From Patescibacteria group bacterium (GTDB taxonomy: Bacteria; Patescibacteriota; Minisyncoccia; UBA6257; 1-14-0-10-40-38): a DNA stretch of 64,000 nt. Every line of letters starts with the position of its first letter. Position 1 is the stretch's first letter. A program made the position numbers and the translations under genes. Location of the stretch: contig JBBTRX010000006.1 of NCBI GenBank assembly GCA_038064975.1, forward strand, positions 10,994 to 74,993, read 5' to 3'. The notes beneath the pieces were generated by a model. The model saw only the letters and a program-made list of their open reading frames with translations. It was not told the origin of the DNA and did no database searches. Of this stretch, positions 3,769 to 53,741 are shown one piece after another.

Positions 3769-3796
3769 CTATTACTAGCATATCACGCACACAAAA

Positions 3797-3829
3797 CACC
3801 CCGCCAGTTGGCGGGGTGTTTTGTTTATT
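3797..3829. terminator. Bidirectional intrinsic terminator hairpin (CACCCCGCC-AGTT-GGCGGGGTG plus T-run)
   Basis: Perfect 9-bp stem followed by TTTTGTTT. Lies 3' of the helicase gene. Confidence 0.6.
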
Positions 3830-5877: not shown

Positions 5878-7188
5878 ATGAACGAAATTATGAGGAGATT
5901 CCTAATCTACACAATTTTTTTTGCTAATCTCGCCGCTATTCTTCTCCTGTGGTGGAACGGATCATTATTGTTTTTTGACGGAACAACGGACGGCACATTT
6001 ATTGCATTAGGGCGACTAGCAGGGCTTTTGGCAATGTTTTTTATTCTTGTCCAACTCATTCTTGTGAGCCGTGTCCCATTTATTGAGCGTGCCTATGGTT
6101 TTGATAAATTGAATAATTTGCATCGCATCTTGGGATACACGCTCGCCGCTACAATTCCCATGCATCCGATTTTACTTTCCTTGGGATATGCGATGTCACA
6201 TGGCATTTCACCGGTGGAACAATTTATTGATTTTATTTCTAACTGGGAAGAAGTGAATAATGCGCTTATTGGATTTATCATTATCCTCACCGCCGCAGTT
6301 TTCGCACTTCCTAAAATTCGCCGATTTTTAAAATATGAGACATGGCGCGTTACGCATCTCGCGATGTACTTTGGTATTTGGTTTATCTTTGATCATCAGA
6401 CCGAAGGGGCAACAGTAAGTCACGGACTCGGCATCACTTATTGGTTTGCACTGAATTTTAGCGTTTTTGGCCTAATACTTATCTATCGGTTTCTTCGCCC
6501 CTTCTGGCTATACTACCGACATCGATTTGTTGTAGATCGTGTTGAAAGGGAAACAGGGAGTGTAACCTCCGTTTATATTACCGGAAGAGATATGGAAAAA
6601 TTCCGATATGAAGCGGGGCAGTATATTAATGTTGTTTTTCTCGCGAGGGGATTTCTACAGCCACATCCGTTTTCTATTTCCGTAGCGCCAAATGGAAAGT
6701 ATCTTCGCCTCTCTATTAGAAACTCCGGAGACTTCACATCTCGCATTCCAAAACTTACTCCCGGAACGAAAGTTATCGTAGAAGGCCCGTTGGGGAGATT
6801 TACCGAACGCGCCGCGCGCACGGAGAAATATCTTTTTATTGCGGGAGGGATAGGGATTACTCCGATTCGCGCGATGGCAGAATCTATTAAAGAGAAGGGT
6901 GGAGACATGATCTTCGTCTACAATAATAGGAGTATGGCAGACGTTCCTCTCAAGTCCGAGTTGGACGCGCTCGTTATGAATCGTAAATATGTGTTTTCTG
7001 ATATGGCAGAATCCGGTCATGAATTTGGAAAAGTTACTGCAGAGATGATCGCGCGTTTCGCACGCGACTTCCGTGATCGGGATGTCTACATCTGCGGGCC
7101 ATGGCCGATGATGAAATCAGTCATCGCATCGTTACGGGAGTCCGGGGTTCCCAAGCGGCAAATCCACTTTGAAAAATTCTCGTATTAA
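5878..7188 (+). CDS. Ferric reductase/NADPH-oxidase-like flavocytochrome (6-TM heme domain plus FAD/NAD(P)-binding domain)
   Basis: Paired His residues in TM helices (HRILGYT...HPILL; HLAMYFGIWFIFDH). Then HPFSIS (FAD RxYS-like), GPLG and FIAGGIGITP (NAD-binding) motifs. Size and architecture resemble bacterial NOX (SpNOX-type). Confidence 0.75.
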   Translation: MNEIMRRFLIYTIFFANLAAILLLWWNGSLLFFDGTTDGTFIALGRLAGLLAMFFILVQLILVSRVPFIERAYGFDKLNNLHRILGYTLAATIPMHPILLSLGYAMSHGISPVEQFIDFISNWEEVNNALIGFIIILTAAVFALPKIRRFLKYETWRVTHLAMYFGIWFIFDHQTEGATVSHGLGITYWFALNFSVFGLILIYRFLRPFWLYYRHRFVVDRVERETGSVTSVYITGRDMEKFRYEAGQYINVVFLARGFLQPHPFSISVAPNGKYLRLSIRNSGDFTSRIPKLTPGTKVIVEGPLGRFTERAARTEKYLFIAGGIGITPIRAMAESIKEKGGDMIFVYNNRSMADVPLKSELDALVMNRKYVFSDMAESGHEFGKVTAEMIARFARDFRDRDVYICGPWPMMKSVIASLRESGVPKRQIHFEKFSY

Positions 7189-7715: not shown

Positions 7716-7786
7716 TTAAGAAAGTTGATGAGTGGACAGTTAATGAGTTGAACAGTCTACTCAAAAGGAAACGACACAAAACAAAA

Positions 7787-7817
7787 CACCCTCCGTAAAA
7801 CGAGGGTGTTTTATTTT
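7787..7817. terminator. Bidirectional intrinsic terminator (CACCCTC-CGTAAAA-GAGGGTG plus TTTTATTTT)
   Basis: Hairpin with A-run and T-run on both sides, between the convergent cupredoxin and fur genes. Confidence 0.6.
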
Positions 7818-8284
7818 GCTAGTTTAGAACATTCTTTGCATAGTCCGTAAAATTCCAGCGCATGCTCATGAATACTTTTAAAATGTTTTGACTTTTTGAG
7901 AATCGTATCTTCCAAGATCTGAATATCGCATCCCGCTATTTCTTCCACACGCGCGCATGCAGTGCAAATAAGATGGTGATGATCTTGAGCTTTTACAATT
8001 TCATAGTGGGCGTGCCCGTGGCGAAGCTCCACACGGCGGAGGATTCCTTTTTCAAGAAGGAAAGAGGTATTTCGGTAAATCGTGACCGGATCAATATGGG
8101 GGAGCTGTTTCGAAATTCCCTTAATAGAGAGAGGAAGGGAAGAATTGAATAACAGCCCTAAAATGGCAAGTCGTTGTGGTGTGGCTTTAAGTCCCAATCT
8201 TTGCAGAATGGGAGCGGGAGAATCCGGTAGAGATGGAGAATGCGGTGAGGTTGTTGCTTCGCTTGACGCTGTCATAACTATCAT
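7811..8284 (-). CDS. fur: Fur family transcriptional regulator
   Basis: Winged helix (TPQRLAILGLL), the HHHxxCxxC motif (HHHLICTACARVEE) and C-terminal CKECS, as in Fur/Zur/PerR. Confidence 0.85.
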   Translation of the reverse strand: MIVMTASSEATTSPHSPSLPDSPAPILQRLGLKATPQRLAILGLLFNSSLPLSIKGISKQLPHIDPVTIYRNTSFLLEKGILRRVELRHGHAHYEIVKAQDHHHLICTACARVEEIAGCDIQILEDTILKKSKHFKSIHEHALEFYGLCKECSKLAK

Positions 8285-9790: not shown

Positions 9791-10231
9791 CTATCCCAAA
9801 AGTTTAAGCAATTCAAACGGATGGCGGTCTGTTCTGTTGCCGAAGATTGTTTTTGTAATGCGCTTGCGGTCGCTGGTATGAAACGACTTTTGCATGATTC
9901 GCGCGACTTGCTGGGGCGCGCAGAAATATACAGTTTCAGGTTGATGACGCTCCGCGTTGTCATGCAGTGCTTCGGCAAAAAGCTTCATGAATTCCGCACG
10001 GATTTTATCACGGATAGGTTCGCGTACCGCGCCGGAACGAGTAGCACCACGTCCACTGCGTGTCATAAAAAATCCTTCATTATCCGAATAGTGAGGGATT
10101 GGCGTCCGGATAGTTTGCAGTTCTTTGAGTGATCCGTTCTCCGCAAGGTAGAGTTTTCCCGCCCGTTCACCGGTAACGGCGATAAGAACACGTTTATTTT
10201 TAAATTGTGGAAGTTCTCGTTGTATTTTCAT
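9791..10231 (-). CDS. Host-attachment/baeRF-like (eRF1-fold) protein, tentative
   Basis: About 146 aa with N-terminal VLIAVTGERAGKLY and C-terminal VYFCAPQQVARIM...ELLKLL, resembling the host_attach (PF10116) pattern. Weak. Confidence 0.35.
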   Translation of the reverse strand: MKIQRELPQFKNKRVLIAVTGERAGKLYLAENGSLKELQTIRTPIPHYSDNEGFFMTRSGRGATRSGAVREPIRDKIRAEFMKLFAEALHDNAERHQPETVYFCAPQQVARIMQKSFHTSDRKRITKTIFGNRTDRHPFELLKLLG

Positions 10232-10375: not shown

Positions 10376-11644
10376 ATGTTGAAAGACACGCTATGGGATG
10401 TAATCGTGATCGGGGGAGGGCCCTCCGGCATGATGGCCGCCGGTACTGCCGCGGAAAAGGGAGCAAAAGTACTTCTTATTGAAAAGAACGCGACGCTCGG
10501 CAAAAAACTGCTTATCACGGGCGGGGGTAGGTGCAATGTTACAAATTCCGAATTTGATACCCGAAAATTCTTGGCAAAGTTTAAAGACGATGGGAAATTC
10601 CTTTTCTCTGCATTTGCGCGGTGGAGCGTGAAGGAAACGCTGGATTTTTTTCATGTCCGAGGCATGGCTACAAAAGTAGAAAATGAACTACGTACGTTTC
10701 CTGTTTCTAATGCTGCTAAGTCAGTATTTGATACGCTCGTAAAATATATCCAAAAACATAACGTAACGGTGCTTTCTAATGCGAGCGTTGTTGAAATAGC
10801 GCGCGAAAGCAACGTGCTTGTTGGCGTAAAACTAAAGAATAAAAAAGTGATTAAAGGTAAATCGCTCATTATGGCGACGGGTGGAACGTCGCGTCCGGAA
10901 ACTGGCTCCACGGGCGATGGCTACAAATGGCTGAAAAAAATCGGTCATACCGTTATTGAACCGACTCCTTCCCTCGTTCCCGTGGCGATCAAAGACGCGT
11001 GGGTAAAAAGATTGGCTGGAGTAAGTCTCTCGGATATTAAGATTACGATTCTCCAAAACGGCGAGAAGCAGGGTATGACAAAGGGGAAGATACTGTTTAC
11101 TCACGTCGGCGTGAGCGGTCCCACGATACTTAATATGAGCAAAGATATCGGCGAACTGTTGCGTTATGGCGATGTCGTTCTCTCTCTTGATATATTGCCC
11201 GCGTACGATCATGGAAAGTTGAATACTAAACTCCAGGAATTATTCAAAGAACATGATAAGAAGAAATTCAGAAACGCGCTCGCCACGCTTATTCCACCCG
11301 GCATTGCATCCGTCATTGCGGAACTTTCGGACATTAATAAAGAAGTCGCGTGCAATAGCGTTACTCGCGAAGATCGATTAAAACTCGTAACACTCTTAAA
11401 AAATGTCCCGCTTAACGTACACAAGCTTCTTGGTGTTGAAAAGGCAGTTATCACGAGCGGCGGAGTGGTTCTAGAAGAAATAGATTTCAAAACCATGCGT
11501 TCCCGACTCTTCTCTAATCTCTATATTATCGGCGACTTATTAAACATTGATCGTCCGTCGGGCGGCTATAGTCTCCAACTCTGCTGGACGACCGGATTTA
11601 TTGCAGGAGCAACAGCCGCGGAGCAAGTAGGGTATACTGCATAA
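10376..11644 (+). CDS. HI0933/BaiN-like NAD(P)/FAD-dependent oxidoreductase
   Basis: DVIVIGGGPSGMMAA Rossmann dinucleotide motif, GGGRCNVTN and a C-terminal GG...GY pattern typical of the HI0933 (aminoacetone oxidase-like) family. Confidence 0.85.
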   Translation: MLKDTLWDVIVIGGGPSGMMAAGTAAEKGAKVLLIEKNATLGKKLLITGGGRCNVTNSEFDTRKFLAKFKDDGKFLFSAFARWSVKETLDFFHVRGMATKVENELRTFPVSNAAKSVFDTLVKYIQKHNVTVLSNASVVEIARESNVLVGVKLKNKKVIKGKSLIMATGGTSRPETGSTGDGYKWLKKIGHTVIEPTPSLVPVAIKDAWVKRLAGVSLSDIKITILQNGEKQGMTKGKILFTHVGVSGPTILNMSKDIGELLRYGDVVLSLDILPAYDHGKLNTKLQELFKEHDKKKFRNALATLIPPGIASVIAELSDINKEVACNSVTREDRLKLVTLLKNVPLNVHKLLGVEKAVITSGGVVLEEIDFKTMRSRLFSNLYIIGDLLNIDRPSGGYSLQLCWTTGFIAGATAAEQVGYTA

Positions 11645-11649
11645 TATAT

Positions 11650-11832
11650 ATGGAAGAACCAATATTTCCCATACGGATTAACAAGTTTCTGGCGCTTCGA
11701 AGAAACTGCACGCGGAGAGCCGCCGATGAATTGGTGTCTAAAAAACAAGTTTTTATCAACGGCAGACTTGCGGTGCTTGGGGACAAAGTACAAGCAGGGG
11801 ATAAGGTAGAAGTGCGCTATCGACGGAAGTAG
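11650..11832 (+). CDS. S4-domain RNA-binding protein
   Basis: 60 aa: INKFLALRR...VFINGRLAV...GDKVEV is the canonical S4 fold signature. Confidence 0.65.
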   Translation: MEEPIFPIRINKFLALRRNCTRRAADELVSKKQVFINGRLAVLGDKVQAGDKVEVRYRRK

Positions 11833-11854
11833 GGCGAGTGTTTTTATAGTCATT

Positions 11855-11886
11855 ACATTCCAACATTCTGCAGAATGTTGGAATGT
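11855..11886. repeat. Perfect 32-bp palindrome ACATTCCAACATTCTGCAGAATGTTGGAATGT (copy 1)
   Basis: Self-complementary with a central CTGCAG. The same sequence recurs at 13749-13780. Confidence 0.9.
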
Positions 11887-12016
11887 TGTAGTTATCAAAG
11901 TGAGTATAGGAAGTATTGTAATTTATATGCATATATGATATAATAAAGGAAGTTTCCAGCTTGGAAACCCGTTCTCCCGACGGTATTGGGAAAAGCACTT
12001 TCACAAGGATACTGCT

Positions 12017-12814
12017 ATGACTCGTTCGAAAGTCATGGTCGCGGACTCGAGCATTTCGGCTCCGCAGATGATGGATTTCTGGCGTAAGATCGGCGATGGA
12101 TCAATCGATGGCATTCGGCTCCAACGCTTCCTTCATAATCCCTCTTGGGATAGTGATAAGACGGAAGTCACGCTCGCGCGAGCGATTAACATACTCGGCG
12201 AGCAAAAAATCGTCAGCATCGATCTGGCGGCAAAAGCTCGAAAAATTGGAGTGGGATTTATTGCGGAATTCTATAATCGTAGGATTCGTTACTCTGAGAT
12301 GACACTTCGTGAGTGTGCTGAACAGAATCGCGATGGCGACGCCGACTGGCGTCTCACCTACTGTTTCGGCTTCTCGCTTCGCGAGCTTCGGGATCAGATC
12401 GGAACGGATCCGAAGAGCCAGCCTTGCTGTTACAGCAATGATTGGTGGTTGAAGAAACAAGAGGACGAGTGGGCAACGGCAAAACCCGAAACCGGCTACT
12501 ACCTCGTTGACTTCAACGGCCGCTTCGCGAGGACCTCTTGGAATAACCAAGAACGGGAAATCGCAAAGCTCGGTGGTCAGTTCTTCCGGACTCCGGAAGC
12601 GGTGATCGCCGAAGCCATCACGACGATCTTCCAAGTTCACAAAGAACGCTTGCTGGAAGAGTGGTACCATTGGGGTTCCTCTCTTGGCTCGGGCGGCGGC
12701 CGCGTGTTCGTCGGTCTCTTCGTTCAGAAGGGATGGGACCTCTACGGCGGTCTTCCTGACTACGACAGCGACGGCGACCTGCGTGTCTGTATCGCCCAGA
12801 AGTTCCAGAGCTGA
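12017..12814 (+). CDS. Hypothetical protein (GC-rich, no recognisable domain)
   Basis: 265-aa ORF with a TTGTAA-17-TATAAT promoter and AAGGA RBS upstream and a GC-hairpin terminator at 12844-12885. G+C clearly above flanks. Confidence 0.5.
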   Translation: MTRSKVMVADSSISAPQMMDFWRKIGDGSIDGIRLQRFLHNPSWDSDKTEVTLARAINILGEQKIVSIDLAAKARKIGVGFIAEFYNRRIRYSEMTLRECAEQNRDGDADWRLTYCFGFSLRELRDQIGTDPKSQPCCYSNDWWLKKQEDEWATAKPETGYYLVDFNGRFARTSWNNQEREIAKLGGQFFRTPEAVIAEAITTIFQVHKERLLEEWYHWGSSLGSGGGRVFVGLFVQKGWDLYGGLPDYDSDGDLRVCIAQKFQS

Positions 12815-12843
12815 ACGTTAACAAAACGAGTCTGTAAAAACAT

Positions 12844-12885
12844 CGGCCGTAGAGGGAGACCTCTGCGGCCGCTTTTAATTTTTTA
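12844..12885 (+). terminator. Intrinsic terminator (GC-rich hairpin plus T-run)
   Basis: CGGCCGTAGAGGG...CTCTGCGGCCG followed by CTTTTAATTTTTT. Confidence 0.55.
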
Positions 12886-13016
12886 ACGAAGCTCCGACGT
12901 TTTGATCGGAGTACTAAAAAATGAAAATAGTATTAAAATAAGGGATTTTTTAGTGAAATTTTCATGAACTTCATAGGAAATTTACAAAACTTTTCTTCTG
13001 GGTATACTTAGTTCGC

Positions 13017-13733
13017 ATGCCGAGTTTTATAAAATTTACTATCGCAATTGAAATAGCAGTTATAGTGCTGGCGTATCCCGCGAGCGCCGCTATTCCTCCG
13101 AATATTCTTATACTAGAAAAATTCGCATCAGTTCCTATTGTTACACCTCTCTCCGTATCGGAAGATATATTAAATGACGAATTAGAAACTGTAATTGAGA
13201 ATGCACCGGAAATCACGACGAATGTGAACGTTGATGTGGAGCCAAAAAAAATAGTAGAACCGGAGAAACCGGCGCCAGCCCCAAAGAAAATCTTTTCTAT
13301 TGATCAAAGCCGTCTCATTATCCCTACCATTTCACTAGATAAGCCGATTGCTCCTGTTGGTCTTACCCCTGAAGGAGATATGGATGTATTGGATGATCCG
13401 AGTCGCGTAGGGTGGTTTAACGGCCGTGCCCTGCCGGGCGAAGTGGGAAGCGCGGTCATTGGTGCGCACGTGTACCAGGCATTCGCGAATTTAAAAAAAC
13501 TCAAAGTAGGGGATGAAATATATGTTAAGCAGGCAGACGGCTCACAACTGCGTTTTGAAGTAGAGGAAATTGCCGTGATCCCTTACACGGATACTACCCA
13601 TCTTCCAAAGATTTTTAATCGTACCGATGGATTGTATCTGAACCTTATTACCTGCCACGGCGAACCCGTTCCCGGTAAGTCTACATACACGCACCGCCTT
13701 GTCGTCTACACTAAACTCGTAGCAACGACGTAA
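13017..13733 (+). CDS. Sortase family transpeptidase (class E/F-like), N-terminal TM anchor
   Basis: Catalytic His (VIGAHV), the TLxTC motif (LITCHG) and a downstream Arg (HRLV). Long Pro/Lys-rich linker after the TM. Confidence 0.8.
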   Translation: MPSFIKFTIAIEIAVIVLAYPASAAIPPNILILEKFASVPIVTPLSVSEDILNDELETVIENAPEITTNVNVDVEPKKIVEPEKPAPAPKKIFSIDQSRLIIPTISLDKPIAPVGLTPEGDMDVLDDPSRVGWFNGRALPGEVGSAVIGAHVYQAFANLKKLKVGDEIYVKQADGSQLRFEVEEIAVIPYTDTTHLPKIFNRTDGLYLNLITCHGEPVPGKSTYTHRLVVYTKLVATT

Positions 13734-13745
13734 AGAAATCTTACA

Positions 13746-13783
13746 CAACATTCCAACATTCTGCAGAATGTTGGAATGTTGTA
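13746..13783. repeat. Perfect 38-bp palindrome (copy 2; contains the same 32-bp core as 11855-11886)
   Basis: ACAACATTCCAACATTCTGCAGAATGTTGGAATGTTGT, immediately after the sortase stop codon. Confidence 0.9.
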
Positions 13784-13878
13784 ATTACTTGATTAGAAAA
13801 TCCAATTGATCTTCTGGGACTCCGATTGACTTGCCGTGCTTGGCGACGGAGAATAAAAATCTCTAATGTTTCTTGGTT

Positions 13879-14958
13879 TTATCCGAACGTAAATGCAAAT
13901 AGTAACGTGCCGGAATCCAAAACACGGAGTTCTAGCGTATGCTCACCAGGTTCGGTATTGCGGATGAGTTTATAAAGCTTACTCTCTTGTATCACTACTA
14001 TTCCATTGTCGTTTACATCAACTCCCGCTTCTCCGGTAACGCGCTTGCCATCTTGCAAGACTTCAATTTCCACCGGCTTATCCGAACTCGCGACGATATA
14101 GACTTCCTTAGCGTTGTATTTGTATACAACCATTGCGTCTTGGATGGATTCCGCATGCTCGCCAGTGATATTCCATATCCCGCCGAGATAGAGCGTGTTA
14201 GGAGAAGGTTTCTCCGGTATTATAAAAGTTTGCTTTCCAGATTTTCCCTGCTGTCCGTTACCGAGATATTCGTTTCGCAATGAACCGAAATACGTTTCCG
14301 GGCTTTTGGCGGCTGTAGTCTCACTCGTGATAGTTGAAGAGACGAGATTATTTTCGGACAATACCATTTCACTCTCATCCAGTACTTGGGCGCGTTCGGC
14401 AAGGAGCTCCCTGATTTTCATCTCCGTTTCTTCGTACGCTCCTTCGCCGATGTGGTCATAGACGATATTGCCGTAAATATCTATCAGATATTTTCTTGGC
14501 CAAAAACGATTACCATAGGCATTCCACGTACCATAGTCATTGTCTAGAACTACGGGATAGGTAATGCCGAATTCCTGCATTGCGTTTTCAACATTCTCTT
14601 TATTTTTTTCAAACGCAAATTCTGGCGTGTGGATACCGATAATAATCAACCCCTGGTCTTTGTACCGTTCGTACCACGAAGTCACATATGGGAACGTGCG
14701 CTGGCAATTGATGCAGGAATACGTCATGACATCCAAAAGAATAACTTTTTCGCCGATATAGTCCGCAATGGTAATAGGGAGATCGTTTGTATTCACAAAT
14801 CCTGAAGGGTTAACGATCTCTTTGTAGGGAATACCTTCCGGTACTCCTGATGCATTACGCGGAGTAATGTCGGGATTTTGAGGAGATGCAAAAAGCACGG
14901 CAACTCCGACGCCGACAAGAATAAGGATAGTAATGCCAAGATGATATTCTTTCCTCAT
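13879..14958 (-). CDS. TlpA/ResA-like thiol-disulfide oxidoreductase with long C-terminal extension
   Basis: Signal-anchor, then a thioredoxin fold with CINC (CxxC) in the redoxin context (VILLDVMTYSCINCQRTFP). About 180 extra C-terminal residues of unknown fold. Confidence 0.75.
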   Translation of the reverse strand: MRKEYHLGITILILVGVGVAVLFASPQNPDITPRNASGVPEGIPYKEIVNPSGFVNTNDLPITIADYIGEKVILLDVMTYSCINCQRTFPYVTSWYERYKDQGLIIIGIHTPEFAFEKNKENVENAMQEFGITYPVVLDNDYGTWNAYGNRFWPRKYLIDIYGNIVYDHIGEGAYEETEMKIRELLAERAQVLDESEMVLSENNLVSSTITSETTAAKSPETYFGSLRNEYLGNGQQGKSGKQTFIIPEKPSPNTLYLGGIWNITGEHAESIQDAMVVYKYNAKEVYIVASSDKPVEIEVLQDGKRVTGEAGVDVNDNGIVVIQESKLYKLIRNTEPGEHTLELRVLDSGTLLFAFTFG

Positions 14959-17516: not shown

Positions 17517-17640
17517 ATCTCACGCGTCACTTCACTCCTTAAAAACCCTCGGTTTTTAACAATTTTCCTACACGGGAGGAATACCTCTCCTCCCGACCCC
17601 TCCTTTCAGTTCGAGTCCTGCCTACAATATAGATACAAAA

Positions 17641-17670
17641 TAAGCCCACTACAGGAGTGGGCTTATTTTG
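17641..17670. terminator. Bidirectional hairpin terminator (AAGCCCACT-ACAGG-AGTGGGCTT plus T-runs)
   Basis: 9-bp perfect stem flanked by A and T runs. Lies 3' of the tRNA-Gln. Confidence 0.55.
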
Positions 17671-17676
17671 TATATG

Positions 17677-17804: not shown

Positions 17805-17866
17805 TAACTGATTAACTCATTATCTGCTTTTAACTGTTCAACTCATCAACTGTCCACTCATTAACC
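17805..17866. repeat. Intergenic repeat family 1 (iterated YAACTNAT units ...TCAACTGTCCACTCATTAAC)
   Basis: Shares the core AACTGTCCACTCAT(C/T)AAC with copies at 7722-7762, 24804-24845 and 31315-31350. Confidence 0.7.
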
Positions 17867-17901
17867 TCCCCAAATGCTTCGCGTGTAGTATACTTAAACT
17901 T

Positions 17902-22656: not shown

Positions 22657-23328
22657 ATGAAGAAAAAAATATATAATGTTCGTCGCGTTTTGCTAAACCA
22701 CGACATCTTCGTCGCTCTTCGCTCCTCGAAAGGTTTTACGCTGATTGAGTTTTTGATTACATTTGCCGTCATTCTTGCGGTTGGTGGCGGCATTGTCGTA
22801 TTCCAGAGGGATTTATTTGTATTCAATTCATACATTGGAAAATCTCTTTCCATCGGACGGGATGCGGAGCGGGTGGTGCGTGATATCGTGAGAGAAGTTC
22901 GATCTGCTTCCCAATCTAGTATTGGGGCATATCCGATAGAAATTGCGAAAGACAATGAGTTTATTTTCTTTGCCAATATTGATAAAGGGGCAGAGCGCGA
23001 GAGAATTCATTACTATCTTTCCGGCGATGAACTAAAAAGGAGTATTATTTACCCCACCGGTCAGCCGCTTACTTACAGTACAACGACAGGAGCGCAGGAA
23101 AGTGTGCGGACGGTGCTTAGGAATATCATCTCAACTACCACTCCTATTTTTACGTACTATAATAATACCTATGCGGGTACGACGACACCGCTTACCCAAC
23201 CCGTTCCGGTATTAAACATTCGTGTCGTAGGTATCATGATTACTGTTGACGAAGTATTAAATCAACTTCCTCCTCCACTCTCATTTTCCAGTAAAGTTAC
23301 TATTAGAAATTTGAGAGATAATCCGTAA
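22657..23328 (+). CDS. Type IV pilin-like protein with unusually long (about 29 aa) leader
   Basis: SSKG|FTLIEFLITFAVILAV prepilin motif. ATG at 22657 follows the upstream TAA by 5 nt. A shorter TTG-initiated leader is possible. Confidence 0.7.
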   Translation: MKKKIYNVRRVLLNHDIFVALRSSKGFTLIEFLITFAVILAVGGGIVVFQRDLFVFNSYIGKSLSIGRDAERVVRDIVREVRSASQSSIGAYPIEIAKDNEFIFFANIDKGAERERIHYYLSGDELKRSIIYPTGQPLTYSTTTGAQESVRTVLRNIISTTTPIFTYYNNTYAGTTTPLTQPVPVLNIRVVGIMITVDEVLNQLPPPLSFSSKVTIRNLRDNP

Positions 23329-24804: not shown

Positions 24805-24845
24805 TCAGTTAATCAGTGGACAGTTAATGAGTTGAACAGTTTAAG
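24804..24845. repeat. Intergenic repeat family 1 (inverted orientation)
   Basis: TCAGTTAATCAGTGGACAGTTAATGAGTTGAACAGTTTAAG is the reverse complement of the 17805-17866 core. Confidence 0.7.
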
Positions 24846-25797: not shown

Positions 25798-25800
25798 TTT

Positions 25801-25827
25801 TTCGCTTTATACTTTATTCCTTATACC
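25801..25827. repeat. Intergenic repeat family 2 (TTCGCTTTATACTTTATTCCTTATACC)
   Basis: Near-identical to 34212-34238 and 53703-53728. Confidence 0.7.
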
Positions 25828-25838
25828 TACTACTTTCC

Positions 25839-31239: not shown

Positions 31240-31318
31240 TATGCAAATGATACGAAACAATAGGTTCGTCGCGTTTTACTAAACTACGACATCTTCGTCG
31301 CTCTTCACTCCTCGAACT
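31240..31318 (+). pseudogene. Truncated duplicate of the 5' end (start-codon region and leader-peptide codons) of the pilin gene at 22651-22730
   Basis: 52-nt stretch GTTCGTCGCGTTTTaCTAAACtACGACATCTTCGTCGCTCTTCaCTCCTCGAA differs from 22678-22730 at 3 positions. AATGATAcGAA upstream echoes AATGATAtGAA. The frame is closed by TAG upstream and TGA at the cleavage-site position. Confidence 0.45.
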
Positions 31319-31350
31319 GATCAACTGTCCACTCATCAACTTCTTTAACT
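31315..31350. repeat. Intergenic repeat family 1
   Basis: AACTGATCAACTGTCCACTCATCAACTTCTTTAACT, fused to the pilin 5' fragment. Confidence 0.7.
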
Positions 31351-33845: not shown

Positions 33846-34211
33846 ATGTCAAAAATAATTAATTTCACTGATCTTATTGCATGGCAAGAGGCGCATAAAG
33901 TAGTTTTGTCGTTATATAAAGCTACGGAACAATTTCCTAATAAGGAAATATATGGACTTACTAGCCAAATGCGCCGCGCCGCTATTTCTCTGACAAGTAA
34001 TATTGCCGAAGGATTTTCTCGTAAATCTTCAAAAGAGAAAATACAATTTTATGCCATTACGTTGGGTTCAAATACCGAATTACAGAATCAACTTATGCTT
34101 GCTCGAGATCTGGGATATATTCCGCCGGAGCAGTTTCATTCTATATTTCAAGATATAATAAGAGTTCATAAACTAACTAATGGTCTTATTCGCGGTCTTC
34201 GGGAAGCATAA
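33846..34211 (+). CDS. Four-helix-bundle protein (23S rRNA intervening-sequence protein family)
   Basis: Characteristic 120-aa pattern IAWQ.A..L...IY..T..FP..E.Y.L..Q.RRAA.SI..NIAEGF, often found between def and fmt. Confidence 0.75.
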   Translation: MSKIINFTDLIAWQEAHKVVLSLYKATEQFPNKEIYGLTSQMRRAAISLTSNIAEGFSRKSSKEKIQFYAITLGSNTELQNQLMLARDLGYIPPEQFHSIFQDIIRVHKLTNGLIRGLREA

Positions 34212-34238
34212 TTCGCCTTATTCTTTATTCCTTATACC
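34212..34238. repeat. Intergenic repeat family 2 (TTCGCCTTATTCTTTATTCCTTATACC)
   Basis: Directly after the preceding stop codon. Also followed by TACCTACT as at 25828. Confidence 0.7.
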
Positions 34239-34250
34239 AAATACCTACTC

Positions 34251-37892: not shown

Positions 37893-38024
37893 GACGGTGT
37901 TTCCTTTTGAGTTAGGAAAGATCGGGGCGTATCGGGAACTAAAATAGTTATAGCACGGCATATGTGTTTTGAAAAACACAAATCAAAGCAAAATAAAAAC
38001 CGCCTTCAATACTGAAAGCGGTTT

Positions 38025-38309
38025 TTATTTTGATGGGGCTTCTACGGTGACAAGCTTGATTTTCGCAGGCGTGCCGTCAAATCGAGTCTTTCTTTTGGAT
38101 GCAATCCGTACCGTTCCTGCGGTTACGGCATAGAGCGTGTCGTCTCCTCCTTTGCGGACGTTCTTTCCTGCTGAAAAGTATGTCCCGCGTTGGCGAATGA
38201 TAACTCCTCCTGCATTCACTGTTTGACCGTTATTGACCTTGACCCCGAGGCGTTTGGATATTGAATCCCGCCCCAGTTTTGTAGAGCCACCCGATTTAGT
38301 ATGTGCCAT
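38025..38309 (-). CDS. rpmA: 50S ribosomal protein L27
   Basis: [24 protein letters not shown]...[10 protein letters not shown]... is the canonical L27 sequence. Confidence 0.95.
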
Positions 38310-46843: not shown

Positions 46844-46850
46844 TCTATAC

Positions 46851-46885
46851 AACAAAAAATCGCCCTGCTTGCGCGGGACGATTTT
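46851..46885. terminator. Bidirectional terminator (CGCCCTGCTTGCGCGGGACG with A-run and T-run)
   Basis: Hairpin flanked by AAAAAA and TTTTTT, 3' of the FKBP gene. Confidence 0.55.
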
Positions 46886-46903
46886 TTGTTGAACGAAACG
46901 TTC

Positions 46904-51668: not shown

Positions 51669-51733
51669 TCTCCATAAACAAAAAACCACCCCGCAGAGCG
51701 GGGCGATTTTTTGTATCAATCTGAAAAGCAATA

Positions 51734-53699: not shown

Positions 53700-53702
53700 C
53701 AA

Positions 53703-53728
53703 TTCGCCTTATACTTTATTCCTTATAC
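53703..53728. repeat. Intergenic repeat family 2 (TTCGCCTTATACTTTATTCCTTATAC)
   Basis: Near-identical to the 25801 and 34212 copies. Confidence 0.7.
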
Positions 53729-53741
53729 TAGATTCTACTTT

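Follow-up and report, generated by a model that had tools for sequence, protein, structure and literature searches.

The closest described systems to the repeat considered here are the REP elements and REPINs of Enterobacteria and Pseudomonas, short palindromic repeats that are mostly extragenic, lie at the 3′ ends of genes and leave no target-site duplication. They are associated with RAYT, a single-copy cognate gene which is itself flanked by the repeats and whose protein lineages each have a repeat variant of their own (PMC3116915, PMC3337134). Rickettsia palindromic elements (RPEs) are mentioned in PMC1779305 and reviewed together with other MITEs in PMC10969869. These elements, RPE-1 to RPE-8, are ∼100–150 bp long, occur in Rickettsia and relatives, both in frame in housekeeping genes and in intergenic space, and are without a known cognate DNA-binding protein. 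Among chromosome-organising palindromes, parS, the site of ParB, also has a dedicated partner: it is conserved across phyla, tolerated in coding regions and located beside or inside the gene encoding the protein that binds it. parS sites emerge in situ, inside conserved sequence, and are concentrated around the origin. A further mark of REP elements is a GTAG-like 5′ tetranucleotide, conserved and asymmetric, which serves RAYT and lies beside an imperfect hairpin.

The stretch of DNA analysed here (the window, 64 kb from a Patescibacteria group bacterium) contains two palindromes which are probably solo copies of a dispersed family of ∼38 bp, here called PAL, with a putative cognate regulator of the ArsR type; the bracketing of a GC-rich ORF and a sortase gene by the two copies would be coincidental. 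PAL resembles REP elements and REPINs in being short, palindromic, dispersed (at least 117 stretches) and mostly extragenic (84 of 125 listed copies lie outside ORFs), and the REP/REPIN–RAYT systems in having a repeat-flanked cognate gene with a repeat variant for each protein lineage. The differences are equally marked: the flanked gene encodes an 88-aa protein of ArsR fold and DNA-binding type rather than a Y1 HUH transposase, PAL is a perfect symmetric palindrome devoid of an asymmetric 5′ tetranucleotide, doublets are not the rule as they are for REPINs, copies are also accommodated in frame within genes, and the same master sequence recurs across phyla. The lack of direct target-site duplication, a trait in common with REP elements, sets PAL apart from DDE-type MITEs.

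The two palindromes of the window

An exact search of the 64-kb window located the 32-mer ACATTCCAACATTCTGCAGAATGTTGGAATGT at 11855–11886 and 13748–13779, confirming an earlier note that an identical long palindrome occurs twice. No third copy is present in the window even when up to three mismatches are allowed, and 100 dinucleotide-preserving shuffles of the window gave no match. The features of the region are as follows.

11650..11832, + strand: S4-domain gene, 60 aa, last gene of the upstream unit
11855..11886, no strand: PAL copy 1, perfect 32-bp palindrome with arms of 14 bp and centre TGCA
11916..11944, + strand: promoter-like site of the GC-rich ORF, TTGTAA, 17-nt spacer, TG-n-TATAAT; 10/12 matches
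12017..12814, + strand: GC-rich ORF, 265 aa, of a family with 367 cluster representatives
12844..12881, + strand: classic intrinsic terminator of the GC-rich ORF, 12-bp stem (9 G-C pairs) and T-rich tail
12981..13008, + strand: promoter-like site of the sortase gene, TTTACA, 16-nt spacer, TATACT; 10/12 matches
13017..13733, + strand: sortase gene, PF04203; nearest NCBIfam model class F, under cut-off
13745..13782, no strand: PAL copy 2, perfect 38-bp palindrome equal to the full consensus, ACA-[32-mer]-TGT
13879..14958, − strand: thioredoxin-like gene, convergent

The full self-complementarity claimed in the earlier note holds over 32 bp for copy 1 and over 38 bp for copy 2. Copy 2 had correctly been described as a perfect 38-bp palindrome; its position is 13745–13782 and not 13746–13783. 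In copy 1 the left outer arm has ATT in place of ACA, which limits the palindrome to 32 bp. Considered as a direct repeat, the two sites agree over 40 nt with one mismatch (11855–11894 versus 13748–13787). Folding, which had been proposed as a check, yields stable hairpins for both copies in RNA and in DNA: stems of 14 and 17 bp with energies of −19.1 and −24.6 kcal/mol as RNA and −13.4 and −17.4 kcal/mol as DNA (z −5.5 to −7.7). The stems are 36% G+C and are followed by the tails AGTTATC and AATTACT. A scan for a stem plus T-run over 11400–14100 scored neither copy as an intrinsic terminator, in line with the previous statement that they are not classic terminators, and called 12844–12871 instead; classic terminators elsewhere in the window consist of a G+C-rich stem and a T-run. 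An Rfam scan of 11500–14100 (E ≤ 10) returned only chance microRNA-like matches, located on the hairpins.

As originally described, the ORF at 12017–12814 and the sortase gene at 13017–13733 lie between the two copies. Copy 1 follows a unit formed by an HI0933-like flavoprotein gene (10376–11644) and the S4-domain gene: it starts 22 nt beyond the S4 stop codon, and 29 nt separate its end from the predicted −35 element of the next gene. Downstream of the promoter-like site of the GC-rich ORF a structured leader extends up to 12016. Copy 2 starts 11 nt past the sortase stop, ends 96 nt short of the thioredoxin-like stop codon, and is the sole strong hairpin in the intergenic space shared by these two convergent genes.

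A dispersed palindrome family

The consensus of the family, ACA-ACATTCCAACATTC-TGCA-GAATGTTGGAATGT-TGT, spans ∼38 bp and has a 14-4-14 layout in which each arm is a tandem ACATTC-NN-ACATTC. By the earlier note's own standard, an occurrence at dozens of unrelated intergenic sites would refute its reading: a search of other genomes with the exact 32-mer gave at least 117 unrelated places in 81 assemblies (MAGs), and the flanks of the copies are mutually unrelated. The hosts belong to many Parcubacteria classes and, outside these, to a single group of MAGs from Kiritimatiellia, Verrucomicrobia and Lentisphaerae; PAL is AT-rich and identical even in genomes of 58% G+C. The 32-mer has no matches in IMG/VR, PLSDB or cultured phages, which makes a vector or adaptor artefact unlikely, and such an origin is further opposed by the taxonomically restricted hosts and by copies lying well within long contigs which come from many laboratories and assemblers. 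Literature searches, both for the sequence itself and for REP elements or other palindromic repeats of Patescibacteria or of the candidate phyla radiation, retrieved no description.

Across 149 copies the arms pair at ∼100% and pairing continues outwards, at −1/+1 in 133 copies, at −2/+2 in 102 (through several pair types) and at −3/+3 in 100, and then falls to background; the flank positions are symmetric (A-N-A / T-N-T). Among variants symmetric double changes predominate, and isolated half-sites are essentially absent, complete palindromes being found almost exclusively. The central four bases are self-complementary in almost all copies (TGCA, TATA, TCGA or TTAA) and therefore point to dyad symmetry of the duplex. 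No target-site duplication was detected, as direct repeats of 3–8 nt are not in excess at seven offsets or past the palindromic extension. Palindromic flank extensions of 5–12 nt accompany ∼26 of 163 copies: like the covariation at −2/+2, these are not explained by dimer binding, and together the two features point to a process based on hairpins or on replication.

The majority of copies are found directly past the 3′ ends of genes. Among the 125 listed, 23 are situated between convergent genes, 36 between tandem and 8 between divergent ones, and 41 fall within ORFs. The REP-like option offered by the earlier note is thereby upheld at the level of the family, which is dispersed, palindromic and positioned mostly at gene 3′ ends. 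At least 12 copies are in frame with both gene halves intact, in PGK, PrmC, TsaD, GltX, MiaA, FBA and a Mur ligase. Both sides of these genes are homologous to orthologues, relative to which PAL is extra sequence that adds ∼11 residues (HSNILQNVGM, TFQHSAECWNV or NIPTFCRMLEC, depending on the frame). The occurrence in frame in housekeeping genes, as a short peptide in tolerant loops, and also in intergenic space is reminiscent of RPEs; PAL is told apart by length (32–40 bp) and hosts (Patescibacteria and PVC-group MAGs), and differs also in having a putative cognate DNA-binding protein.

One surface loop of FBA is hypervariable: different lineages carry PAL there in two reading frames, and other orthologues have unrelated 7-nt tandem repeats or nothing. 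The presence of PAL in two frames of a single loop implies repeated insertion, and decayed PAL-encoded peptides are present in FBA orthologues. At orthologous sites PAL is identical while its flanks have diverged; this identity is partly an ascertainment effect, because the loci were picked by exact match. Purifying selection as the cause of that identity was downgraded in view of such picking and of the decayed FBA peptides.

A winged-helix gene flanked by the palindrome

Part of the family is found around an 88-aa winged-helix gene of ArsR/SmtB fold, with one palindrome upstream and a second over the stop codon. The upstream copy is centred ∼42 bp ahead of the start, by an extended −10 element, and the downstream copy provides the final two codons as well as the stop. 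This arrangement recurs in 21 of the 117 loci picked by the 32-mer (among the matches listed). When 80 metagenomic loci were chosen by the protein alone, an upstream copy (a PAL-family palindrome within 120 nt) was present in 75, a copy at the stop in 72 and both in 67. Because the gene is PAL-flanked in 67–75 of 80 loci, PAL looks like an operator for a dimeric regulator, an alternative that the earlier note had listed and that finds support at the family level. The motif TGnTAnnnT is found between PAL and the start in 36 of 62 loci, compared with a frequency of 3.7% in random windows of 30 nt; the −10 hexamer most often begins 30–31 nt from the dyad.

The AlphaFold model of the protein (pLDDT 92) displays helices, a beta-wing and a C-terminal helix in an ArsR/SmtB fold. 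Its best Foldseek/PDB matches are YgaV, HlyU, ArsR, CzrA and SmtB; HTH_5 and HTH_20 match near or over their cut-offs, and neither HUH nor Y1_Tnp models match. As in ArsR/SmtB repressors, a small winged-helix fold is combined with an inverted repeat over the promoter of its own gene (75/80 loci). Unlike the 12-2-12 operators of those repressors, PAL is longer (14-4-14), has a second copy over the stop codon and is present in many extra copies where there is no promoter.

The family comprises at least 7407 clusters at 90% identity. Homologues that are 34–53% identical have different palindromes, on both sides, and the recognition helix changes with the palindrome centre: KTISQHT goes with CTGCAG, KNISQHT with CTATAG, KTISEHT mostly with CTTGAG and KTISGHT with CTCGAG. 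Since the flanking copies and the gene are in physical linkage, this co-variation may partly reflect co-inheritance instead of recognition. At 21 module loci no transposase, nuclease or recombinase is consistently adjacent and no second conserved gene is found; the neighbours, in varying order, include a PIF1-like helicase (5/21), a DUF559-like protein (2/21) and a zinc-ribbon protein (2/21). The 64-kb window contains no copy of the winged-helix gene. An origin of solo copies as remnants of the whole module, in the manner of solo LTRs, is unlikely in essential genes, since the intermediate would be a knock-out.

The explanation proposed, from sequence and predicted structure, is that a dimer of the winged-helix protein recognises PAL in duplex form and that the protein controls its own gene. 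Solo copies would represent further putative binding sites, spread by some process and surviving at the least harmful places, namely past stops, between convergent genes and in protein surface loops. Copy 1 would mark where the flavoprotein/S4 unit ends, and copy 2 the 3′ terminus common to the convergent sortase and thioredoxin-like genes; both might form transcript hairpins of 14–17 bp and both might be occupied by the protein, if its presence in the source genome is assumed. A DNA-binding protein without a recognisable catalytic domain leaves insertion unexplained, a point that weighs against this explanation.

A bolder proposal, possible but rather doubtful, is that PAL and the 88-aa protein constitute an undescribed operator–repressor pair acting as a replicator. 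A module of ∼400 bp would have moved between phyla, since the proteins of Parcubacteria and of the PVC group are 74–77% identical and share the same AT-rich site, even in 58% G+C genomes. The binding site would multiply without an element-encoded transposase, also in frame into essential genes, and PAL would be kept uniform because the site must remain readable by the protein. Protein-bound sites might act as genome-wide transcriptional roadblocks at gene ends, and the bound protein might shield long palindromes from hairpin-directed nucleases.

Alternative explanations and implications

The earlier note had raised the prospect of a mobile or recombining two-gene cassette. Were the palindromes recombination sites, such as pdif/Xer modules or integron attC, the GC-rich ORF and the sortase gene would be mobile or invertible together. 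It would suit such a reading that the sole two copies in 64 kb bracket exactly two genes, the first of which is richer in G+C than the window (0.54 versus 0.44), that loci L095 and L108 hold several accessory genes with PAL copies between each, resembling the arrays in which pdif and attC palindromes separate single genes, and that gene families around the winged-helix gene recur in differing order; the geometry, taken as 13-6-13 with a CTGCAG centre, resembles tyrosine-recombinase core sites. The cassette is nonetheless unsupported, because the palindrome is found at well over 100 unrelated sites, scattered and in some cases within essential genes. Each of the two genes has a predicted promoter and the first its own terminator, no recombinase gene recurs near PAL copies, and, in contrast to pdif and attC, no integrase or Xer gene is associated (Xer arms judged by eye). 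The GC-rich ORF has no Pfam, NCBIfam or meaningful PHROG match; its homologues elsewhere (L124–L128) are also GC-richer than their neighbours everywhere, with no adjoining sortase and no PAL flank. The locus is present in Logan run ERR3858113; Logan contigs end at both copies, leaving a 1911-bp contig, and exact-protein look-ups gave the same arrangement only, in contigs broken at PAL. These breaks, which could be read as a trace of recombination, are expected anyway because the repeat exceeds the assembler k-mer. A relative with an empty site was sought and none close enough was found: the closest HI0933-like relatives are ∼77% identical and their loci are non-syntenic and without a PAL copy. 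Recombination sites are very unlikely, and coincidence is the likeliest account of the bracketing of two independently transcribed genes.

The chance that the only two copies of the window fall 1.9 kb apart is roughly 5–10% under a naive model, a value that counts against coincidental bracketing. The GC-rich ORF was also considered as a mobilising enzyme, by analogy with RAYT, and discarded: none of the 117 listed PAL loci includes a homologue, and homologues reside in ordinary contexts without PAL.

A role mainly at the RNA level, as terminators lacking a U-tract, 3′-end stabilisers or processing hairpins, has been proposed for the REP sequences of enterobacteria and would make the protein irrelevant to solo copies. 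The hairpins are stable (RNA −19 to −25 kcal/mol), the window copies lie past the stops of units without another terminator, convergent sites exceed divergent ones (23 versus 8), copies are found between cistrons at L095 and L108, and arm changes are paired, with pairing running on into the flanks. This role is unlikely all the same: a hairpin needs neither the conserved 28-nt arm sequence nor a self-complementary loop, both of which are present, ribosomes would unwind the copies in coding regions, the window has classic G+C-rich stem and T-run terminators elsewhere, and an AT-rich sequence that is identical in 58% G+C genomes argues for a sequence-specific reader. Of similarly low probability is a selfish miniature element moved by an enzyme, for example an IS200/IS605-like or RAYT-like HUH transposase, with the winged-helix gene as landing site or passenger. 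It would accommodate the absence of target-site duplications, as in HUH-type transposition, the obligatory hairpin with half-sites essentially lacking, the repeated insertion into one FBA loop in two frames and the decayed PAL-encoded peptides, but would not account for the fixed geometry (dyad often ∼42 bp before the start, second copy forming the last two codons and the stop) or for the joint change of both flanking copies with the protein subfamily; PAL is, moreover, fully symmetric as opposed to the asymmetric tetranucleotide of REP, and no transposase gene recurs near the copies. An uptake signal akin to DUS or USS, whose perfection would be maintained in naturally competent Patescibacteria through biased uptake and recombination, is extremely improbable. 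Patescibacteria are thought to rely on imported nucleotides, and one sequence is common to many lineages, where it lies in frame within coding regions or forms hairpins behind genes, and is identical at orthologous sites despite diverged flanks; that identity, however, is partly due to ascertainment. Whereas DUS and USS are short asymmetric motifs with abundant single copies, PAL occurs almost only as complete palindromes, single half-sites being essentially absent, and at the low density of two copies per 64-kb window; a tie to a cytoplasmic winged-helix gene would be unexpected for an uptake receptor. With parS/ParB, PAL shares palindromic structure, a cross-phylum distribution, tolerance in coding regions and proximity to the gene of a putative binder; it differs from parS in being extra sequence relative to orthologues and in being scattered.

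For the window, the preferred reading of solo copies with a putative regulator means that there is probably no mobile sortase cassette, only two solo repeats at gene ends. In a wider perspective, one sequence of 32–38 bp is common to many Parcubacteria classes and a PVC lineage, and is linked to a small regulator that ranks among the commonest in these uncultured hosts. There are practical consequences too: PAL adds spurious-looking peptides to annotated housekeeping proteins, and it breaks short-read assemblies and fragments MAG contigs. If the protein binds PAL, the two would form a testable regulator–site pair in organisms for which experimental genetics is nearly absent, with an architecture like that of REP and RAYT but a DNA-binding protein in the place of the transposase, and the palindrome would mark gene flow linking the episymbiotic Patescibacteria with other phyla.

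The two palindromes of the window and the genes between them

The 32-mer ACATTCCAACATTCTGCAGAATGTTGGAATGT occurs in the window as two exact copies, 11855-11886 and 13748-13779, which are the only representatives there of PAL, a family of dispersed palindromic repeats of about 38 bp with the consensus ACA, 32-mer, TGT. No further copy was found in the window at up to three mismatches, and none of 100 shuffles of it contained a match. Copy 1 is a perfect palindrome across 32 bp and copy 2, the consensus form of the PAL unit, across 38 bp; the direct repeat between them runs 8 nt further right with one mismatch. Both form hairpins of 14 or 17 bp, with folding far below shuffled controls; both lack a T-run after the stem, and the terminator scan calls neither. 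The earlier note had correctly described the two copies, the bracketed ORFs and the lack of classic terminator character, and the folding it advised bears out the hairpins; its 38-bp palindrome also holds, although with coordinates one base off.

Features of the window
9791-10231 (-): 146-aa protein matching baeRF family 12 / Host_attach domains (bacterial eRF1-like), near the PAL locus and unrelated to the palindrome finding
11855-11886: PAL copy 1 (32-mer), 22 nt after a 60-aa S4-domain gene, the last of a flavoprotein/S4 unit
11944-12016: 5' leader of the GC-rich ORF, hairpin GTTTCCAGCTTGGAAAC then CCGTTCTCCCGACGGTATTGGGAAAAGCAC
12017-12814 (+): GC-rich ORF, 265 aa, 54% G+C
13017-13733 (+): sortase gene
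13745-13782: PAL copy 2, beginning 11 nt past the sortase stop, between the sortase gene and a convergent thioredoxin-like gene
3791-3824, 7777-7818, 17633-17673, 37989-38032, 46850-46891, 51678-51714: classic bidirectional intrinsic terminators, perfect hairpins with a G+C core and A-runs and T-runs at the sides
7723-7759, 24807-24843, 17840-17868, 31315-31343: dispersed short repeat AGTTGATGAGTGGACAGTTAATGAGTT, in both orientations
25799-25831, 34210-34242, 53701-53733: dispersed short repeat AATTCGCCTTATTCTTTATTCCTTATACC, three copies
22678-22730, 31264-31316: 53-nt repeat pair, 94% identity
26467-28489: at least six tandem units of about 312 nt, 60-80% identity, probably the gene of a repeat-domain protein

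The six classic terminators mean that the genome has terminators of the ordinary kind in addition to PAL.

The GC-rich ORF, whose product has no family match, possesses a predicted extended -10 promoter, with its -35 placed 29 nt after the end of copy 1, a structured leader and a classic terminator; the sortase gene has a promoter-like site of its own. Homologues of the ORF form 367 representative clusters, and in the five loci inspected they have terminators of their own and neither PAL nor a sortase as neighbour. Since homologues exceed their surroundings in G+C (0.56 vs 0.51; 0.51 vs 0.42), high G+C is, on compositional grounds, a trait of the family and not a mark of recent transfer. The flanking flavoprotein has relatives of 77% identity at best, whose loci are not syntenic; exact-protein look-ups returned the same arrangement only, with short-read contigs stopping at the palindromes. 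The earlier note had raised a mobile two-gene cassette as one possibility and counted dozens of unrelated sites against it, and a scan of species-representative genomes returned the 32-mer in at least 117 stretches with unrelated flanks. Together with the separate predicted promoters and the ORF's own terminator, this leaves the cassette unsupported, and we conclude that each of the two genes forms a transcription unit of its own and that they lie between two solo repeats by chance.

A counterpart of the leader is recognizable in another genome (L124, 3912-4000), upstream of a 58%-identical homologue. The leader has no match in Rfam and, judging from these two informative sequences, may be an undescribed cis-regulatory RNA.

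Spread, anatomy and placement of the PAL family

The stretches carrying the exact 32-mer, recovered by a scan of species-representative genomes, come from 81 assemblies produced by many groups, and the flanking sequence differs from site to site. Many matches sit at contig ends, as expected of a repeat. One set of hosts comprises Parcubacteria/Paceibacterota classes (Giovannoni-, Lipton-, Brenner-, Kaiser-, Yanofsky-, Wolfe-, Sung-, Specht-, Doudna- and Moranbacteria) and many MAGs labelled Saccharibacteria; the other consists of MAGs with a G+C content of 52-62%, under the labels Kiritimatiellia, Verrucomicrobia or Lentisphaerae. The 32-mer has no match in IMG/VR, PLSDB or cultured phages, PAL matches no Rfam family, and within the searched literature, where no mention of it was found, the family appears undescribed.

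The fetched loci (854 kb) contain 165 copies at no more than 10 mismatches from the consensus and essentially no isolated half-sites. Differences are mostly even in number, being mirrored changes in both arms, and the commonest variant is C7T with G26A. The central four bases are TGCA in 152 of the 165, the rest having TTGA/TCAA, TTAA, TATA or, once, TCCA. Among 149 copies with 10-nt flanks, the arms are paired in essentially all; pairing extends to -1/+1 in 133, to -2/+2 in 102 (C-G, A-T and T-A all being common) and to -3/+3 in 100, and reaches background from about the fifth position outward. The unit therefore measures 38-40 bp. In about 26 of 163 copies the palindrome is prolonged by 5-12 nt of arbitrary sequence, and no target-site duplication surrounds PAL at any offset.

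A few copies are nested or hybrid. In L069 (6246-6295) a second palindrome, CCTGCCTGCGCAGGCAGG, is inserted at the loop of the PAL arms; L092 (about 6500-6570) carries a 31-nt loop insert; and downstream of the winged-helix gene described below, the G+C-rich hairpin ACATTCTGACCCCGCATTTGCGGGGTCAGAATGT lies within PAL outer arms in both L186 and L194. These forms suggest that hairpin tips are targets of further insertions.

Placement of 125 exact PAL copies
Between convergent genes: 23/125
Between tandem genes: 36/125
Between divergent genes: 8/125
Inside ORFs: 41/125
Too near the end of the fetched stretch, one flanking ORF lying beyond it: 17/125

Intergenic copies often begin 0-30 nt past a stop codon. 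All six frames of the consensus are free of stop codons, and at least 12 copies lie within recognizable housekeeping genes that are in frame on both sides (PGK, PrmC/HemK, TsaD, GltX, MiaA, class II FBA, Mur ligase, a dihydroorotase-like protein and others), encoding HSNILQNVGM, TFQHSAECWNV or NIPTFCRMLEC according to frame. Alignment with orthologues places these copies in variable loops. In one loop of Parcubacteria class II FBA, about 20 of 120 orthologues contain PAL in a first reading frame, with visible decay in some, and four contain it in another frame; other orthologues have unrelated 7-nt tandem repeats or no insert. Insertion has therefore occurred there more than once, and copies decay. 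At the codon positions of PAL in L036 (3531-3562), L131 and L132 have (AAATTCA)n or (ATTTTCA)n, and in L129 the surface loop is empty; the loop, which belongs to an essential enzyme, is a hot spot for insertion or expansion. PAL is identical at orthologous positions with differing adjoining codons in PrmC of five PVC MAGs and in two other gene pairs, which is weak evidence of constraint because these loci were selected by exact match.

Runs of accessory-looking genes with a PAL copy between each occur in L095 (1214-4634) and L108 (1154-5520). They encode a PIF1-like helicase, a zinc-ribbon protein, a DUF559-like nuclease, an NYN-domain protein and TspO, and the order of such genes relative to the winged-helix gene varies among genomes.

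A conserved PAL - winged helix - PAL module

The genes bracketed by two PAL copies in other loci belong to one family, encoding an 88-aa protein; the window has no copy. By tblastn this gene adjoins PAL in 21 of the at least 117 loci (21 of 81 assemblies), including one Verrucomicrobiota and one Kiritimatiellia MAG. The exact 32-mer lies 22-41 nt ahead of the start in most of the 21, and the stop is overlapped by a variant copy, whose C7T form reads ACA TTC TAA and supplies Thr-Phe-stop. The product is a winged-helix protein of the ArsR/SmtB group: matches to HTH_5, HTH_20 and MarR are weak to moderate, the best PDB sequence matches are ArsR and HlyU, and the model (pLDDT 92) most resembles YgaV, HlyU, ArsR, CzrA and SmtB. 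The family comprises at least 7407 clusters at 90% identity, mostly from Patescibacteria, many members lying on short contigs (0.5-1.5 kb), which is what breakage of assemblies at the flanking repeats would produce.

An independent sample of 80 metagenome loci, picked by the protein alone, removes ascertainment bias. A PAL-family palindrome lies within 120 nt upstream of the gene in 75 of the 80, at or over the stop in 72 and on both sides in 67; no other gene was found consistently adjacent. Between the upstream PAL and the start, the extended -10 motif TGnTAnnnT is present in 36 of 62 of these loci vs 3.7% of random windows; its first base is most often 30-31 nt from the dyad, and its end usually 6-10 nt ahead of the start codon. 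This geometry places the dyad near -42 of a predicted leaderless-type transcript, and the short distance makes it probable that this gene, very common in Patescibacteria, is expressed from leaderless mRNA. The PVC copies of the gene have the G+C of their hosts (0.55-0.57) and the PAL site stays at 37%, which suggests an old transfer with continued constraint on the site.

Protein and site co-vary. Homologues at 34-53% identity have quite different palindromes on both sides, such as TTCTATTCCAGTGTTTTGCAAAACACTGGAATAGAA or TTCTCTAATTCGCTCGAATTAGAGAA (one case being L123). Within the close family the recognition helix KTISQHT accompanies the centre CTGCAG, KNISQHT accompanies CTATAG in every case seen, KTISEHT mostly CTTGAG, KTISGHT CTCGAG and KTISVHT CTTAAG, and the two copies of one module nearly always share a centre.

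Related systems and a proposed role

The closest architecture is that of REP/REPIN sequences with the RAYT gene, in which a single-copy cognate gene lies between copies of a dispersed palindrome (PMC3116915, PMC3337134), but PAL lacks the defining Y1 transposase and has no asymmetric 5' tetranucleotide. Rickettsia palindromic elements also have in-frame copies (PMC1779305, PMC10969869), yet differ in size and hosts. The pair of PAL and winged-helix gene matches the ArsR/SmtB repressor-operator pattern, from which it departs in having another copy over the stop codon and many copies without a promoter. Of the alternatives raised in the earlier note, the REP-like and shared-operator options are supported at the level of the family. 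Intrinsic terminators (no T-run, no call by the scan), DDE-type MITEs (no target-site duplication), attC/pdif recombination sites (no recombinase recurring among the neighbouring genes), of which the attC type had been suggested earlier, and uptake sequences (half-sites essentially absent) were considered, and PAL lacks the features tested for each.

The protein probably acts as a dimer that binds PAL in duplex DNA and regulates its own gene; recognition of duplex rather than of an RNA loop is favoured because the centre is self-complementary and depends on helix residues. A winged helix with no recognizable catalytic domain cannot by itself explain insertion. Template switching at quasi-palindromes is a mutational mechanism acting during replication. 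It would fit three features, namely arm changes that mirror each other, covariation at -2/+2 and the occasional long palindromic extensions, and the spread of symmetric subfamilies would fit them equally.

Solo copies would, somewhat more tentatively, be additional binding sites, retained where they do no damage. For the window there is an even chance that PAL gives transcripts a stable hairpin at their 3' ends and may be occupied by the protein.
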